DNA from: a virus
Lineage: Duplodnaviria > Caudoviricetes
IMG/VR virus record: IMGVR_UViG_3300037424_000434
Span: 128,001 to 192,000 of that record
Length of the DNA stretch: 64,000 nt
Reading direction: 5' to 3' (one strand)
Shown here: piece after piece, positions 22,120-63,560 of the stretch
Layout: every line of letters starts with the position of its first letter
Position numbering within the stretch: the stretch's first letter is position 1
Program-made: the position numbers and the translations under genes
Notes under the pieces: generated by a model
Told to the model about the DNA's origin: nothing
Databases searched by the model: none
Seen by the model: only the letters and a program-made list of their open reading frames with translations

Positions 22120-22623
22120 ATGACAGTTAATAATTTAGCAAAAGCTACCTCCAATAATTTTGAATTAATATTCCCCAAGATACCCACTGAGAGTAGTTTG
22201 GGTGCGATGGAAGGATTGACATTAAATATACATACAACCGTAATACCGTCTATGACATTGGAAACCACTGATATAAACTGGCAAGGCGGGGTTGCTCATT
22301 ATGAAATTGGAACATTAACGTTTGAGCCATGGTATGTAAATTTTACAATAGATTCGAATTATGATAACTGGAAGAAGTTATATAAATGGATAACTTTTAT
22401 AAATAATAATAAGGATAGATTTGGTAGACCACGAGACGAATACAAGGTTGATGCGGTGCTTCGTGTTCTCAACAATTTCAGACAAGAAGTAATGATAATA
22501 GATATACGTAACGTTTGGATAAATATGTTGGGTGAAATAACATTAACCTACCGAGAAGGGGACCAAAACTTAGATTCACAAGCAAATTTCATATATGATA
22601 GATATGAAGTAAGAGATATCTAA
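22120..22623 (+). CDS. gp3: Tail tube terminator (T4 gp3-like)
   Basis: NNFELIFP...VIPSMTL...LTFEPWYVNFTIDSNYDNWKKLYKWI; gp3/gp19-fold size and position. Confidence 0.7.
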   Translation: MTVNNLAKATSNNFELIFPKIPTESSLGAMEGLTLNIHTTVIPSMTLETTDINWQGGVAHYEIGTLTFEPWYVNFTIDSNYDNWKKLYKWITFINNNKDRFGRPRDEYKVDAVLRVLNNFRQEVMIIDIRNVWINMLGEITLTYREGDQNLDSQANFIYDRYEVRDI

Positions 22624-22645
22624 TATAAGGAGGAACACAGTATTA

Positions 22646-22674
22646 TTTACGTTTTATTGCAAATGGTGTACGAT
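22646..22674 (+). promoter_or_regulatory. Putative sigma70-type promoter of the first Hef-like gene
   Basis: TTTACG-17 nt-TACGAT, with ATGGTG just before the -10 box as in the gp47 promoter. Confidence 0.45.
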
Positions 22675-22692
22675 ATATGAAAGGGGTATACA

Positions 22693-24327
22693 ATGAAATT
22701 AACAGATGATACTATAGAAAAATATGATATCTACATCACAACAAACGGCAAATATCGTTCTCGTGTACAAAAAAGAACTTATACCTTATTAATATGTGAG
22801 GAATGTGGGGAAGATTTTTTGGGTATAGATGAGAAAAGAAAATTTTGTACAAAAAAATGTTCAGCAAATAACGAAAATGTATCACTGAAACGTGCAAAAA
22901 CAAATATAATTAAATATGGATGTTCCGAACCTCTATCCAATCATGACATAAGAGAAAAGGCAAAAGATACAAAAAATATAAAATATGGCGATGAAAATTT
23001 TGTGAATCCACAAAAAGCATTGAGAACAAAAATAAAAAAATATGGCGATTTTGAATCTATTACAGAAAAAACAAAATCAACGAAACTGGAAATATATGAT
23101 GACGAATATTACACCAATCCTAACAAGAGAATAGAAACTTTAATAGAACGATATGATGTAAAAGATTCTTTCTCCATAAAAGGTGTATCAGAAAAAATAA
23201 AAGAAAGATTGTTAGATAATTATGGAGTTGATAATTTTTTTAAATCAAATCTTTTTATAGAACAAAAGAAAAAGCTAATATCAGAAGAACGAAATATACG
23301 ATATCAGAGAATATATAAAGAATTTTCTGACGAAAAGTATACAATATTAACCAGTATATATGAATATATACTGACAGGCGGTCTTGTCATAGCAAAATGT
23401 CCAAAAGGACATATTCAAGAATATTATATAAGCAATTGGAACAAAGGATGTAGATGTGGTAAGTGTTTTGGGAATGTTTCAAAAACCGAAATAGAGATTT
23501 CCGACTTTGTTAAAAGCTTGGATGTTCATGTGATATCGAATGATAGAACAATAATTTCTCCACTTGAATTGGATATAGTTATACCAGAAAAGAAAATAGC
23601 AATCGAATATTGTGGTTTATATTGGCACAGTGAAGAACTTGGTAAAAGTAAAGGATATCATTTACATAAATTGGAAAAATGCAAAGAAAAAGATTATCAA
23701 TTAATTACTGTTTTTGAGAATGAATGGATTAATACCAAAGACATAGTTAAATCTATAATAAAAACAAAATTGGGCAAATTGGATTATAAAATACACGCAA
23801 GACAATGTGTGATAAAAGAAACCTCTTTTGCCGAAAAAAAAATTTTCTTGGGCGATAACCATTTACAAGGGGATTGTGTATCAAAATACAATATGGGATT
23901 ATATTTTAAAGATGAACTGGTTTCATTGTTAACTATAGGAAAATCCAGATTTGATAATAAATATGATTATGAGATATTAAGATTCTGTAATAAATTGAAT
24001 ACATCTATTTCTGGTTCATTTTCTAAGTTATTTTCTCATTTCAAGAAAAACATTGGTAGTGGATATATTGTTACATATTCTGATAGAAGATATTTTGATG
24101 GAATGATTTATGCAAATAATGGTTTTATATTTGAGAAATACACAGAACCAAATTATTGGTATAGCAAAGGGTATAACCTATATAACAGAATGGTATTCCA
24201 AAAACACAAACTAAAAAATAAATTATCATCTTATAACGATAATTTGACGGAAAAAGAAAATATGGAAAAAGATAAATACTATAGAATATGGGATTGCGGG
24301 AATTACAAATATTCCATAGTAATTTAA
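22693..24327 (+). CDS. Hef-like free-standing homing endonuclease with C-terminal GNAT-like domain
   Basis: SKTEIEI...ELDIVIPEKKIAIEYCGLYWHS PD-(D/E)XK/Vsr-like core, then ARQC...NHLQG...LRFC...TYSDRRY...RIWDCGN. Lys-rich and more AT-rich than its flanks. Confidence 0.75.
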   Translation: MKLTDDTIEKYDIYITTNGKYRSRVQKRTYTLLICEECGEDFLGIDEKRKFCTKKCSANNENVSLKRAKTNIIKYGCSEPLSNHDIREKAKDTKNIKYGDENFVNPQKALRTKIKKYGDFESITEKTKSTKLEIYDDEYYTNPNKRIETLIERYDVKDSFSIKGVSEKIKERLLDNYGVDNFFKSNLFIEQKKKLISEERNIRYQRIYKEFSDEKYTILTSIYEYILTGGLVIAKCPKGHIQEYYISNWNKGCRCGKCFGNVSKTEIEISDFVKSLDVHVISNDRTIISPLELDIVIPEKKIAIEYCGLYWHSEELGKSKGYHLHKLEKCKEKDYQLITVFENEWINTKDIVKSIIKTKLGKLDYKIHARQCVIKETSFAEKKIFLGDNHLQGDCVSKYNMGLYFKDELVSLLTIGKSRFDNKYDYEILRFCNKLNTSISGSFSKLFSHFKKNIGSGYIVTYSDRRYFDGMIYANNGFIFEKYTEPNYWYSKGYNLYNRMVFQKHKLKNKLSSYNDNLTEKENMEKDKYYRIWDCGNYKYSIVI

Positions 24328-43930: not shown

Positions 43931-45454
43931 ATGGCTAGAAGACATTATTGGCAGTTTCTTGTTACAGATGAAGGTAATCCTATAGAGAATGCCGATATTA
44001 CTATAACCAGTGCAGGCACAGACACCCCGGTTTTCGTGTATACCTCGGAATCCGGTGGTGCTGGTACTGCCACAGCCCCCCAAGTAACGACCAGTAGAAA
44101 GGGATATTTTGAGTTTTGGGTGGGAGATACTACCGAAGGCATTGGGTATCCGTATACCACAAAATTCAAAATAGCGTGGTATTCTGCCGGTGTTAGTGCT
44201 GGATATATAGATTATGTTGATGTGTTTTCCACTTCTGTAGCAGAAGTTGATTTGGCCAGTGTAGATACTGGTAGAAATAAAGCGGTCTCGAATTTCTTGG
44301 CTAAGGGCTGGGAAGATCATTCGAATTCGGTGCTTTATACAAACGGGGTTACTACAATTCATGGCATGTTGGCGATGAATTTAAGTGATAACACTAACAT
44401 CGATTACAACAGACTTATAAGCAATGAGTATGCATATAAATGGGATACTCACGCCGATGCTGTTATGGCGGATTCCCCTCATGGGATAAGTGGTGTTGAT
44501 GAAACCATTACGGAGGCAACAAAAAACAAAACAGTAAGCAATACCCTCGCATATGGGTGGGAACAACACCGAACAAACACGGCCCTTGACGAACATGCCC
44601 AATATTCTCTTGTTGACGGGACACGAAAATATACTGCTGGGGTTGGATACGCCAATGGGTCGATAGTTTCAGGTGTTGGTGTTGATGATTTCGTTACCAA
44701 AGCGTATGTAACAGCCATATCCAACCCGTTTGACCAAGATTTGAATACAACGGATTTTGTGACATTTGCTGGAGTTACTGTTGCAGGAACTATTCTGGGT
44801 AACGGTAGTCTACTGACAAATATAACATTTGACCAATTATTTGATGCCAATATAGTCACACCCTCAGACGGAGATATCTTAGAATATCAATCCGGGTATT
44901 GGGTGAACACACAACCAACACTAAGTTCACTGACAGATACAACAATATCAGCTCCCGCTGACTATCAAGTTCTTAGTTATTCAAGTGGCTCATGGGTGAA
45001 TGGATCAAAGATTAATCAAAATCTAATGACAACCAACTCCCCCGTATTTGCGAACTTGACTATTACTAATACACTTACAGCATCAGTATTTAGTGCTTCG
45101 ACCAGTATAGGCACCGTGAATTTGGTGGTATCCGGTGATATTACCGCACCAACATTGCCGTTGAAATATAAAACACTGGAAATCGGGGATTGGAATATGG
45201 ATGTAACAGCTAATGTGTCGGTTTTACATGGATTAACTCTTGCTAACATTAGAACTGTGGAGGGTGTTATAAGGAATGATACCGCTGTCGGAACATATGT
45301 CATTGGAGGGAGCGATACAACAAACCACTCTTGGGTTGCTGTGATGGATGGGACTAGTGTGTACTTGACGAGACTGGCCGGTGGTGGTTTCGATAATGGT
45401 GACTTTGATTCTGTTGGATACAATCGTGGTTGGATTACTATTGGATACGTATAA
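43931..45454 (+). CDS. Putative tail/fibre-associated structural protein
   Basis: Internal repeats (NKxVSNxLAxGWExH); DEHAQYSLVDGTR motif shared with 46502..48898. Confidence 0.55.
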   Translation: MARRHYWQFLVTDEGNPIENADITITSAGTDTPVFVYTSESGGAGTATAPQVTTSRKGYFEFWVGDTTEGIGYPYTTKFKIAWYSAGVSAGYIDYVDVFSTSVAEVDLASVDTGRNKAVSNFLAKGWEDHSNSVLYTNGVTTIHGMLAMNLSDNTNIDYNRLISNEYAYKWDTHADAVMADSPHGISGVDETITEATKNKTVSNTLAYGWEQHRTNTALDEHAQYSLVDGTRKYTAGVGYANGSIVSGVGVDDFVTKAYVTAISNPFDQDLNTTDFVTFAGVTVAGTILGNGSLLTNITFDQLFDANIVTPSDGDILEYQSGYWVNTQPTLSSLTDTTISAPADYQVLSYSSGSWVNGSKINQNLMTTNSPVFANLTITNTLTASVFSASTSIGTVNLVVSGDITAPTLPLKYKTLEIGDWNMDVTANVSVLHGLTLANIRTVEGVIRNDTAVGTYVIGGSDTTNHSWVAVMDGTSVYLTRLAGGGFDNGDFDSVGYNRGWITIGYV

Positions 45455-45475
45455 TAATTATATTGGAGTTCGTAA

Positions 45476-45847
45476 ATGAGACTGTATAGGTATTTGGCAT
45501 TATCAAGCACGGATGAAGGGGTAAGCACCTTTCGTGCCTTGAAATTGGATTTGGTTGAGGAAGAAACTGGCAACACTGCTTTGGTCAAAAGAATGAGCGA
45601 AGACTTTGCATTAGATGACACCGCTATACAGTTATTAGAGAGAGCCAATGCAGAGCTAAAAAAGATGTATAGAGGTAAGTTGAAGTTTGATTTCTGCACA
45701 GAAAACCAAGGGTTTACTCCCGATGAAGTTAGGATTGAAATAAAAAAAGTTCGTCAGTTGAAAGAAAAGTGGTTCAAATTTAATGATGAGCTTTCGAGTA
45801 TTCAAATAGATTTTGAGGACAAGCTCAAACAAGGTTTACAAAAGTAA
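45476..45847 (+). CDS. Hypothetical protein
   Basis: 123-aa ORF with a GGAG RBS; no recognisable motif. Confidence 0.65.
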   Translation: MRLYRYLALSSTDEGVSTFRALKLDLVEEETGNTALVKRMSEDFALDDTAIQLLERANAELKKMYRGKLKFDFCTENQGFTPDEVRIEIKKVRQLKEKWFKFNDELSSIQIDFEDKLKQGLQK

Positions 45848-60034: not shown

Positions 60035-60086
60035 TATAAATACTTGGGAATAGTTGGTTTACAAATGTGTTAATATTTATTATAAT
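60035..60086 (+). promoter_or_regulatory. Tandem late (TATAAATA) and sigma70-type (TTTACA-17-TATAAT) promoters for uvsX
   Basis: TATAAATA at 60035-60042; TTTACA at 60058-60063; TATAAT at 60081-60086. Confidence 0.7.
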
Positions 60087-60110
60087 AAGTAAAAAAATGT
60101 GAGGTAGAAT

Positions 60111-61220
60111 ATGTCCAATACGTTTGATTTAATTAAAGAAAAACTGGAAAAGGCGGCAAAAGGCGATAGGATGATGATTCTAAGTGAATCAGAAAATGCC
60201 GCGCCGATAGTGTATATACCAACAGAAGCATACGACCTGAACAGAATCCTGTCAGGCTCATTGTACCACGGGGTTGCAAGTCGAACCCATACCCTATTAG
60301 TGGGACCAGAAGCATCTGGTAAATCTTCCTTTATGTGTCTTAATCTCGCAGCCGCCCAAAAAATGGGTTATACCCCCGTTGTTATTGATGCCGAGGGAGC
60401 ATGGACAAAAAAGTTCTGTGAACGATGGGGTATTGATACCACAAGAGCGTTTATAATTTCTACTCCATGGGTAGAAGAAATTATGATAGAGCTTGCTAAG
60501 ATCATTGATGAGGGTTGGACTAGATTGGCTATTGCGTTTGATTCCATTGGTGCGGTTGAGTCACTTAAGATGATCGACGATGTTACCGGCAAGGGGAAGC
60601 GGGGAGAAGTTGTTGCCGATCAGGGAGGGTTGCAGAAGAAAATCAAACGTCTTATGAAAATGTTGGTTGATATCACCAAGCGCCAAGACTCTGTTTCTTA
60701 TTCTGCTGGACATTACTATGGTAACCCAACAGGATATGGAGAACCAGAAAAGATCGGTGGGGGATTTTACCCGAGACTCGCCGCAGATTACATCATAACT
60801 CTGAAAAAAGCTCTTATCCACGAAAACCCCACAGCAAAAACTGCGGCAGAAAAAGGGGATGTCGTTGGTACCAGAATATATGCTGCAACGATAAAAAATA
60901 GATACGCACCACCCTTTCAGGAGGCAGTGTTTGAAATCTCATATCATAATGGTGTACAACGATTGGCTGGTATCATTGATGTAGCCAAAGAAATGGGTAT
61001 TATTGATCAATCAGGCGCATGGTATACAGTTCCATGTCTGGGGATAAAATCCCAAGGCCAAGGTAACCTAGAAAAAGACCTCGAAAATGTTGATATCCAA
61101 CCCCTGTTTGATGAGATTGAAAAAATTCTGGAAGGTAGAGGATACAGCAGTGCTAAAGATGAATTGAAGGTTTTGGCTGATGTTGTTGATGGGGTGACAC
61201 CCACAGAAGTGCTATCATGA
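60111..61220 (+). CDS. uvsX: RecA-like recombinase
   Basis: LNRILSGS, Walker A GPEASGKS, IDAEG, FDSIG, IGGG, KNRYAPPF, QSGAWY motifs. Confidence 0.9.
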   Translation: MSNTFDLIKEKLEKAAKGDRMMILSESENAAPIVYIPTEAYDLNRILSGSLYHGVASRTHTLLVGPEASGKSSFMCLNLAAAQKMGYTPVVIDAEGAWTKKFCERWGIDTTRAFIISTPWVEEIMIELAKIIDEGWTRLAIAFDSIGAVESLKMIDDVTGKGKRGEVVADQGGLQKKIKRLMKMLVDITKRQDSVSYSAGHYYGNPTGYGEPEKIGGGFYPRLAADYIITLKKALIHENPTAKTAAEKGDVVGTRIYAATIKNRYAPPFQEAVFEISYHNGVQRLAGIIDVAKEMGIIDQSGAWYTVPCLGIKSQGQGNLEKDLENVDIQPLFDEIEKILEGRGYSSAKDELKVLADVVDGVTPTEVLS

Positions 61221-61402
61221 CCTCAGAAGAAAGAAGTGATGCACTTGAGTTGATAGCTCGGCGGTTAGAATCAAAAAATAGATCAAAGAAATCTGAAGAG
61301 GTTCTTCGTGAATTGTATGAACTTGTCGATGATTATAATGCTTTTATACGAGATATGGACGTGAGATTCGACAAGATATTGATACGGGTGGAGAATCTAT
61401 GA
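61217..61402 (+). CDS. Small hypothetical coiled-coil protein
   Basis: 61 aa, ATGA overlaps at both ends. Confidence 0.6.
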   Translation: MTSEERSDALELIARRLESKNRSKKSEEVLRELYELVDDYNAFIRDMDVRFDKILIRVENL

Positions 61403-61626
61403 ACATACAAGAATTTCGATTACTACCACAATATAAGGATATGTCGCGAACCAATGGTTTAAAAGTAGGTGATAAATTCCTGACTGGCGCAAGAGTATTA
61501 AACCAAGTTGACAGCAAACACGTCAATGACATGATTACATACTATGTTGTGATACAAGTTCAAACAAATGGTAATATTAGTTATAAACAAGAGATGGAGA
61601 GATTAACCGGACAAGAGGAGGAGTAA
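61399..61626 (+). CDS. Small hypothetical protein
   Basis: 75 aa, GGAG RBS. Confidence 0.6.
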   Translation: MNIQEFRLLPQYKDMSRTNGLKVGDKFLTGARVLNQVDSKHVNDMITYYVVIQVQTNGNISYKQEMERLTGQEEE

Positions 61627-61630
61627 CTAG

Positions 61631-61960
61631 ATGGTGGCAATACAGGTGTTTGTAATAAGTTATGAAACAAAGGTTTCGACGTTCAAGGCGTATTTGTTGG
61701 CAGAGTCAAAAGCGGATGCAATGTCTTATCTTAAAGCAGAGATGGGAGACCAAGAGGGATTTAGAATCAACAATTTTGAGTCCCGAGAAGAAATACACGC
61801 AATCACTACTCAAGTATTAGACAAGATTCGTGGACCAAAACAGGAAGCAAAAGTTGTGGAGAATGTTAAGTTGCTTTGCCCGTGGTGTGAGTCAACCGAT
61901 TATTTGTCGAATCATGCATTAAAGATGCATATAGTTAAAGCACACAAAAAGGAGAAGTAA
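61631..61960 (+). CDS. Hypothetical protein with C-terminal C2H2 zinc finger
   Basis: CPWC-x9-L-x2-H-x4-H (CPWCESTDYLSNHALKMHIVKAH). Confidence 0.7.
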   Translation: MVAIQVFVISYETKVSTFKAYLLAESKADAMSYLKAEMGDQEGFRINNFESREEIHAITTQVLDKIRGPKQEAKVVENVKLLCPWCESTDYLSNHALKMHIVKAHKKEK

Positions 61961-62037
61961 TGGAACCGGGACGGGTTGATATTGGGAACTTGCCGAAAAA
62001 CAAAGCAGAAGAATATATCAAAAAAGGATTATATTGA
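61960..62037 (+). CDS. 25-aa micro-ORF with a T4 gp20 portal-like motif
   Basis: MEPGRVDIGNLPKNKAEEYIKKGLY; AAGGAG RBS; TAATG overlap upstream and TGATG overlap downstream. Not in the supplied ORF track. Confidence 0.65.
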   Translation: MEPGRVDIGNLPKNKAEEYIKKGLY

Positions 62038-62888
62038 TGAAGATATCCGTTAATAACATTGATTCCTTGTTGAGAGTTGAACTTAGCAAAATTGCTAGTA
62101 TTGTCGATATTGATGATGCTAGCAATGGTCTTTTTCTTATATGGACCAATGCAGACGAAAAGGAGATGTTTGACAGGCAGACCCACCTGATCACAACTGC
62201 TATCAACAAAAAGATGCCTATCATTATTTTTGACAAATATCAAACCATGGACCCGGATGAAATATCGTTTATGATGAAGTCAGGGGTTTTTCTGTGGGAA
62301 CCTGCTGTGGCTGATAGGATGTTCTTTTCATTTCAGCCTGTTTGGGGTAGGTTGCGGTTAACACCCCAAGACATTCCATGGGACTTTGATTCGGAAAAAA
62401 GACCCATAGATCTCGCGTATATGTCATCGATGATACAAAAAATGCCCACGTTCAAAAAATACTTCGCTCCCATCGCAGAGATTGGCGAATTTAGAGTTTA
62501 CTATTTCGACAAGATTGGGAGCGAGAACATTAACAGAAAGATAGAAGAAATCGGTGTTACAGTGGGGCCTCAGACCAATATCAACAAAACAAAAATGACG
62601 CTTTTACTGGGAACCGATCAAGATTATAGAGTTGGCAGACTTGACCCCAAATTATTTGAGTATCTTGAGGCTGGTATAGTTCCAATGTTACCCGTGGAGC
62701 ATAGATGGTATCATAGTGTTTTTAGAGATTTGACCGTTGATGGCGAAGATCAAATCGAATATTTTCTCCGAACAGTTGACAGGATAGGCTTTGGGTCAGT
62801 CTATGAGATATACCAGAACATCAACGACAACTTACCCGAAGCGGATGTGATTAATGTGGCAAAGAGAATAAAGACCTTTTTTGAATAA
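62037..62888 (+). CDS. Putative GT-B glycosyltransferase (T4 beta-glucosyltransferase-like C-terminal half)
   Basis: RPIDLAY...TLLLGTDQDY...RLDPKLFEYLEAGIVPML resembles the GT-B nucleotide-sugar-binding region. Confidence 0.5.
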   Translation: MKISVNNIDSLLRVELSKIASIVDIDDASNGLFLIWTNADEKEMFDRQTHLITTAINKKMPIIIFDKYQTMDPDEISFMMKSGVFLWEPAVADRMFFSFQPVWGRLRLTPQDIPWDFDSEKRPIDLAYMSSMIQKMPTFKKYFAPIAEIGEFRVYYFDKIGSENINRKIEEIGVTVGPQTNINKTKMTLLLGTDQDYRVGRLDPKLFEYLEAGIVPMLPVEHRWYHSVFRDLTVDGEDQIEYFLRTVDRIGFGSVYEIYQNINDNLPEADVINVAKRIKTFFE

Positions 62889-62891
62889 AAC

Positions 62892-62919
62892 AAAAGCCCC
62901 TAGAAGATTAGGGGCTTTT
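62892..62919. terminator. Bidirectional Rho-independent terminator
   Basis: AAAAGCCCCTA-gaagat-TAGGGGCTTTT. Confidence 0.85.
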
Positions 62920-62967
62920 AATTTGATAACCTAAATACCTAAAATCAAAAGATTTTTCGCTTTTTTG

Positions 62968-62996
62968 TTTACATCAAAGACAAAGTATGTCATGCT
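62968..62996 (+). promoter_or_regulatory. Putative sigma70-type (early) promoter
   Basis: TTTACA-17 nt-CATGCT with a TGn extension, directly after the terminator. Confidence 0.5.
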
Positions 62997-63037
62997 TGTA
63001 TATGTTACAATTGCGAATAAAAGGAAAAGGTGATTTT

Positions 63038-63346
63038 ATGGAATTTAAGTACACGGACAAAGGCACGTGTTTGATTGAGATAAACACGAGTGTGTATATG
63101 TCGTTCGGTGATGCAGAAGAAATTCGATTTGTCCATGTTAAGTATTCAACTCCCCACACTTCGATATCACGGATGTTTCCTATACCGCTATCAAAACTAC
63201 CAAAGGACTGTACCACATCTTTTGGCAAAAAGAACATCAAACAGATTAGAGAGCTATTGCAAAAATTTTCTGTTGGCGGTACTCTGGACAGAAAACATCT
63301 AAAGAAAATCGGAGACGCTATAAATCGTGCAGAAAAAAGTAAATGA
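63038..63346 (+). CDS. Hypothetical basic protein
   Basis: 102 aa from the ATG after AAGGTGA. Confidence 0.6.
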   Translation: MEFKYTDKGTCLIEINTSVYMSFGDAEEIRFVHVKYSTPHTSISRMFPIPLSKLPKDCTTSFGKKNIKQIRELLQKFSVGGTLDRKHLKKIGDAINRAEKSK

Positions 63347-63560
63347 TTGTTTGTATATCAGACCCTCCATTGAAAGCATTGACCTTGCAAAAGAAATATG
63401 CGACACTCACCTATTTCTCACAACACATATCACAATGTTGAGTGTGAGAAATTTCCTAGTAATCATGCATGACCCAAACCATAGATGTTTTGTTTGTAAA
63501 CAGATCCATACCGCAAACAAAACAGAAAAAATTCTTTTTTAAAGTAACCTGTATTTTTTG

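Follow-up and report, generated by a model that had tools for sequence, protein, structure and literature searches.

A 25-codon micro-ORF of a T4-like phage matches the portal clip tip of another clade: probable capture of a foreign gene fragment

At a junction of two tightly packed genes, an uncultured T4-like phage contains a 25-codon micro-ORF whose core resembles the clip tip of the portal protein gp20, in a version that differs from the phage's own. According to our preferred reading, to which we assign a probability of roughly 0.55, this is a captured fragment of a foreign portal gene, without selected peptide function, at a recombination-prone junction. The window, i.e. the whole stretch of 64,000 nucleotides that was analyzed, comprises bases 128001-192000 of a 235,765-bp virus record with an estimated completeness of 98%; positions refer to the window unless another reference is given. 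We call the record a T4-like phage because it contains a T4-type portal, and the true portal of the phage is a 525-aa ORF (L001:1282-2859).

The micro-ORF belongs to a packed operon in the order uvsX-like recombinase, 61-aa, 75-aa and 109-aa genes, micro-ORF, and 283-aa gene. The features to which the text refers are the following.

60035-60042, plus strand: candidate promoter of the six-gene uvsX operon, T4-late-like TATAAATA (consensus match only)
60058-60086, plus strand: candidate promoter of the same operon, sigma-70-like (11/12 consensus match only)
61631-61960, plus strand: upstream 109-aa gene with a C-terminal CxxC...HxxxH zinc-finger-like end; 69-84% identity in relatives
61950-61954, plus strand: Shine-Dalgarno sequence AGGAG of the micro-ORF, within the 3' end of the 109-aa gene and five bases 5' of the ATG
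61960-62037, plus strand: micro-ORF of 25 codons (stop included in the coordinates), read from the sequence; product MEPGRVDIGNLPKNKAEEYIKKGLY
61975-62024, plus strand: portal-gene-derived core of 50 nt, V6 to K22, equivalent to T4 gp20 287-303 at the clip tip; the local DNA alignment to metagenomic gp20 genes ends at these borders
62024-62028, plus strand: AAGGA, likely ribosome site of the 283-aa gene (presumed role), eight bases 5' of the ATG at 62037
62037-62888, plus strand: downstream 283-aa gene, conserved; directly 3' of the 109-aa gene in all relatives that have both
62891-62920, strand not assigned: GC-rich hairpin 3' of the stop of the 283-aa gene, likely the operon terminator

Of the seven matches to TATAAATA on the plus strand of the window, six (at 828, 7192, 20650, 28191, 52698 and 60035) lie within about 80 nt 5' of the start of an ORF on that strand. 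This placement fits T4-type late promoters, as expected; the total number of occurrences in the window, 11, is not above the shuffled expectation. The 283-aa protein has at least 28 metagenomic homologs with 37-61% identity, all of which, where checked, occur in a uvsX-to-Clp-ATPase neighborhood, and Pfam and PHROG searches returned no family match for it. A blastn search of positions 60100-63400 against cultured phages in the 'distant' mode gave no match.

Direct reading of 61960-62037 on the plus strand agrees with the initial annotation, which had described a 25-aa ORF with a good Shine-Dalgarno sequence and stop/start overlaps on both sides. The stop codon TAA of the 109-aa gene (61958-61960) and the ATG of the micro-ORF share one base (A); in the same way, the final A of the TGA (62035-62037) is also the first base of the start codon of the 283-aa gene. 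[quoted passage not shown] As the 283-aa frame is already open from 61978, a -1 frameshift that would fuse the micro-ORF peptide to the 283-aa protein at AAAAAAG was considered; it was rejected as unsupported, the canonical heptamer being in the wrong frame.

Several features of the record outside the window were noticed along the way. Two fragments of 35-36 codons (G000:C1:43948-44055 and 67893-67997), where rough gene calling gave no gene, share about 77% identity with portions of full-length genes close by, i.e. a GDIHGC-motif gene at 44919-45638 and a gene at 68847-69155. The large-terminase region (G000:C1:119783-122906) is split into at least two ORFs with intein-like end motifs (CVAGDT..., ...GILSHN), and an intein C-terminal-like relic is located at 22593-22703 of G000:C1.

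Is the similarity to portal proteins real? Single-sequence scores are marginal. The Pfam profile Portal_T4 (PF07230), which spans 433 positions and has a curated cut-off of 22.9 bits, aligns its positions 211-227 to residues 6-22 of the micro-ORF with 13.8 bits (E 0.024), i.e. below this cut-off. The PHROG portal family phrog_213 matches with E 0.013, and phrog_23805, a family of 72 positions, with E 0.003. The latter family recognizes the clip of the resident portal too (E 1.2e-5), and it may be made up of fragments of split portals or of clip proteins that stand alone in cultured phages. A tblastn search with the peptide against 50,697 phage records matched 556 of them, at E about 0.1 and with Caulobacter phage Cr30 as the top match; all among the matches listed fall on the portal gene. 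A phmmer search of PDB sequences returned no match at E up to 10. These low scores are what would speak for a chance resemblance; this explanation and an assembly artefact, taken together, we regard as very improbable.

Stronger evidence comes from comparisons within the genome and among portals. When the peptide is compared with its own 236-kb genome by tblastn, the best non-self match is the motif RIDTGNMPKDKAMKYVEK of the phage's own gp20 (E 1.2e-4, 10/18 identical), and the next match has an E of 0.48. An HMM of the clip region was built solely from portals that a homology search with the resident portal had retrieved; with this own-clade model, the micro-ORF scores 15.1 bits (maximum in 21 residue-shuffled genomes, 10.9 bits), and in this genome only the portal scores higher. 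A mixed-clade HMM gives 24.7 bits versus a maximum of 11.2, a score that is inflated since half of the members were fetched with a pattern from the micro-ORF itself; for this reason we rely on the own-clade model. The micro-ORF contains the clip-tip motif (I/V)D(V/T)GN(L/M)PxxKAxxY in the form VDIGNLPKNKAEEY, and its eleven-residue core GNLPKNKAEEY is found exactly in 25 metagenome contigs, while GNLPKNKAE occurs in at least 120 viral contigs; the exact back-translated pattern of DIGNLPKNKAEEY had no match in viral contigs. The closest portal, from a metagenomic sequence (L023), shares 15 of 17 amino acids and 41 of 51 nucleotides with the core. By these sequence comparisons, a chance resemblance appears effectively excluded for the portal match, and the gp20 motif that the initial annotation had recognized in the micro-protein is confirmed. 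An artefact, for its part, would need both flanks to be joined correctly on one contig.

The portal type of the core points to a source outside this phage. The tip of its own portal is of the IDTGNMPKDKAMKY type, whereas the micro-ORF carries the DVGNLPKNKAEEY type of another clade, a type frequently found in cyanophage, Caulobacter phage Cr30 and many marine contigs. The own-clade portals listed (the nearest 120, with identities as low as 51%) nearly always have the tip IDTG[NSAQ]MP[KRM][DE]KA and never one of the GNLPKNKAEEY type. We therefore regard the snippet as foreign. A recent duplication of the own portal gene was considered and rejected, because the DNA similarity does not exceed the level that the shared residues already impose and the motif is that of a different clade. 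The initial annotation had also suggested that the peptide times the phage's own packaging, and the foreign-clade motif argues against this.

At the DNA level, similarity to portal genes does not extend beyond 61975-62024. The nucleotide identity of 41/51 does not exceed what the shared amino acids imply, so that it neither names a donor nor allows selection to be deduced from synonymous differences. Since only two of the 17 residues differ from real portals, the insert would be either recent or constrained. For the N-terminal residues MEPGR, an alignment to the portal segment 'RAPER' with a 12-nt deletion matches 7-9 of 15 nt, versus 0-3 for contiguous portal sequence; this weakly supports a derivation of MEPGR from that segment.

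The distribution of the micro-ORF bears most directly on its interpretation. Homologs of both flanking genes led to 11 syntenic loci from seven distinct lineages, in which the stop of the 109-aa-type gene is 0-10 nt from the start of the 283-aa-type gene. The micro-ORF is absent from all 11 of these junctions; a further relative (L002) has neither the micro-ORF nor the 283-aa gene. Because the related loci join the flanking genes directly, we interpret the micro-ORF as a lineage-specific insertion of 64-77 nt between the 109-aa and 283-aa genes, whose borders are blurred by short flanking repeats (ATG; CAAAAA(A)GGA). Most relatives read AAGAAG where this phage has AAGGAG. The search was extended to stand-alone copies of the core motif, for which the initial annotation had proposed a tBLASTn survey, and none is clear among 145 other occurrences fetched from viral and metagenome contigs. 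These are in frames of portal length or in frames cut by a contig end, with one exception: in L101 (IMGVR_UViG_3300021197_001310) the motif lies in a stop-to-stop frame of 336 residues, 105 residues from the frame start and with a contig end nearby, and its portal gene may be interrupted upstream. The view that the micro-ORF is 'not a random remnant' finds no support in this distribution. Nor do the homologous loci contain decaying copies, which had been named as an outcome that would speak against function; they simply lack the ORF. Judged by an intact frame in related genomes, the micro-ORF does not qualify as a conserved gene.

From these observations we propose the following model. During co-infection, 50 nt that encode the clip tip in a T4-type portal gene of the DVGNLPKNKAEEY clade would have been copied as the core of the insert and captured, presumably as filler or microhomology-joined DNA, beside a gene that often recombines. 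The insert would have been placed between the ribosome site of the 283-aa gene and its start codon. From such a position it follows that the frame starts with a strong Shine-Dalgarno sequence and an ATG and ends on the downstream ATG; the micro-ORF would be translatable because it took over the ribosome site of the downstream gene. Ribosomes probably translate the micro-ORF and then reach the 283-aa gene by coupling. The peptide would be a tolerated by-product without selected activity of its own, and the tidy overlaps would reflect the need to keep the 283-aa gene expressed: if survival of the insert depended on downstream expression, no further cause is needed for the neat start and stop.

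The capture of a foreign fragment is favored by the 11 related loci without the ORF, by the confinement of portal DNA similarity to the core, by the foreign-clade motif with its 15/17 identity to a portal of another clade, by the lack of a clear stand-alone copy among the 145 motif matches, and by the flanking short repeats, which are expected for microhomology joining. Furthermore, the neighboring gene is mosaic. In two of the relatives (L007 and L156) the zinc-finger-like protein is 99% identical while the adjacent 283-aa protein is only 72% identical, from which we infer breakpoints within the 283-aa gene and a mosaic structure of this gene across related phages. The presence of stray gene fragments, inteins or intein relics and homing-endonuclease-like genes in the same genome points in the same direction. 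Three observations count against the capture model, namely that the fragment comprises exactly the tip that contacts the terminase together with most of an experimentally inhibitory peptide, that the frame is intact while most relatives are without the AAGGAG site, and that the core departs from real portals at only two of 17 residues. The striking location is in part a detection bias, because a fragment of 17 residues would be recognizable only if it came from the most conserved segment.

The same layout could be explained if translation itself mattered and not its product. As a cis-acting leader, the micro-ORF would feed the 283-aa gene by termination and reinitiation, tuned together with a hairpin at 62091-62126. 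We consider this explanation quite unlikely. It would account for the one-base overlaps at both ends, and the insert has parted the 283-aa gene from its ancestral ribosome site. The hairpin begins after the first 54 nt of the 283-aa gene, has 16 bp, is followed by the T-run GGTCTTTTTC and is predicted to be stable (-19.3 kcal/mol, z -4.4); no comparable palindrome was seen in those 5' ends of 283-aa-type genes of relatives that were read. Intragenic attenuation or RNA processing would be possible roles for this hairpin. On the other hand, a leader function leaves the portal derivation of the sequence unexplained, and the AAGGA eight bases 5' of the downstream ATG could serve the 283-aa gene without any coupling. 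A structured RNA element within the insert was considered as well and rejected, as the insert and ORF region shows no significant structure (z 0.08).

We next consider whether the peptide could act on the machinery from which its sequence derives. In T4, the clip of gp20 comprises residues 279-358 and is exposed outside the capsid, where both the packaging ATPase gp17 and the neck attach to it (Sun et al. 2015, PMC4493910). According to the same paper, N291, M292, R295 and K296 at the clip tip are probable gp17 contacts, and alanine pairs at N291/M292 and R295/K296 abolish packaging; the statement in the initial annotation that this segment is implicated in terminase docking is thus correct. 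The paper also cites a report that packaging is inhibited by a gp17-binding peptide made of 24 gp20 residues, 288-311 (Lin, Rao and Black 1999, J Mol Biol 289:249). We aligned the phage's own portal to the solved T4-type portal chain 9lu6, in which the motif is YVDTGNMPARKAAEHM and includes N291, M292, R295 and K296; when this alignment is chained with that of the micro-ORF to the own gp20, D7-K22 correspond to portal positions 288-303. By alignment, residues 6-22 correspond to T4 gp20 287-303 and cover 16 of the 24 positions of the peptide 288-311. In comparison with the T4 tip, N291 and K296 are kept, M292 is replaced by L, and R295 by N.

Based on these correspondences, the putative 25-mer might be a decoy that offers the tip G-N-L-P-K-N-K-A-E-E-Y to the large terminase and competes with the portals of proheads. 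Such a decoy would block the packaging of co-infecting T4-like phages with this motif, while the phage's own diverged portal-terminase pair would be spared. We rate this as unlikely, if worth consideration. In its favor are the published inhibition by gp20 288-311 and the essential pairs N291/M292 and R295/K296 (PMC4493910, the peptide as cited in that paper), the alignment of the micro-ORF to portal positions 287-303, and a tip that matches a foreign clade and not the own portal. The strong Shine-Dalgarno sequence (AAGGAG versus AAGAAG in most relatives), the intact frame, and an operon with sigma-70-like and late-like promoter motifs are also consistent with it. However, the micro-ORF is a singleton, absent from the 11 related junctions and without a clear stand-alone copy elsewhere, and of the 24 residues in the published peptide it represents only 16. 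Stated in full, the hypothesis is that a lytic T4-like phage made a 50-nt portal snippet of a rival clade into a translated 25-residue decoy directed at the rival's terminase docking site, sabotaging the rival's packaging in co-infection as a natural counterpart of the gp20 288-311 inhibitor; in this form we hold it to be rather doubtful.

The clip also binds the neck protein gp13 (PMC4493910), and Avs4 sensors recognize phage portal monomers (bioRxiv 10.1101/2025.11.14.688446). Hence, a putative blocker or decoy could be directed at the neck protein or at an Avs4-type host portal sensor instead of the terminase. To this we give very little credence: the micro-ORF is a singleton in this case as well, and by triggering an abortive-infection sensor, a decoy would be detrimental to the phage.

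The captured fragment and an active peptide would be instructive in different ways. If the insert is only a scar, it is a clean case of a foreign gene fragment captured at an operon junction, and indicates that an insert survives when the translation of the next gene is preserved; it also cautions against deducing function from a highly conserved motif in a micro-ORF alone. If the peptide is active, it would represent a natural, gene-encoded inhibitor of the portal-terminase interaction and a minimal, testable peptide for the docking interface, and phages would be able to build anti-phage weapons from tiny pieces of a competitor's structural genes. Our literature searches did not find a natural stand-alone mimic of the portal clip.

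Among known systems, the synthetic T4 gp20 peptide 288-311 is one of the closest. The micro-ORF peptide at least looks like it, with any action being putative: the two overlap in the clip-tip segment, including the equivalents of N291, M292, R295 and K296, and are of similar length (24 versus 25 residues). The T4 peptide is synthetic and cognate to T4 gp17, whereas the micro-ORF peptide is encoded in a genome; furthermore, unlike gp20 288-311, the latter aligns only to 287-303, has unrelated ends (MEPGR and GLY) and carries the tip of a clade other than that of its own phage. In relation to the T4-type portal gp20 (PF07230, PHROG 213), the 17-residue motif is up to 15/17 identical. The portal architecture extends over about 500 residues, and the 25 residues of the micro-ORF lack wing, stem, crown and most of the clip; because of this and of the score below the Pfam cut-off, we do not classify it as a portal.

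Small proteins that interfere with packaging are known from phage satellites. SaPI Ppi and PICI Rpp have been proposed or shown to block the DNA packaging of competitors via the terminase; their target is the small terminase subunit, they do not mimic a portal, and they are encoded by conserved satellite genes. In contrast to these conserved genes, the micro-ORF is a singleton insert in a lytic phage.
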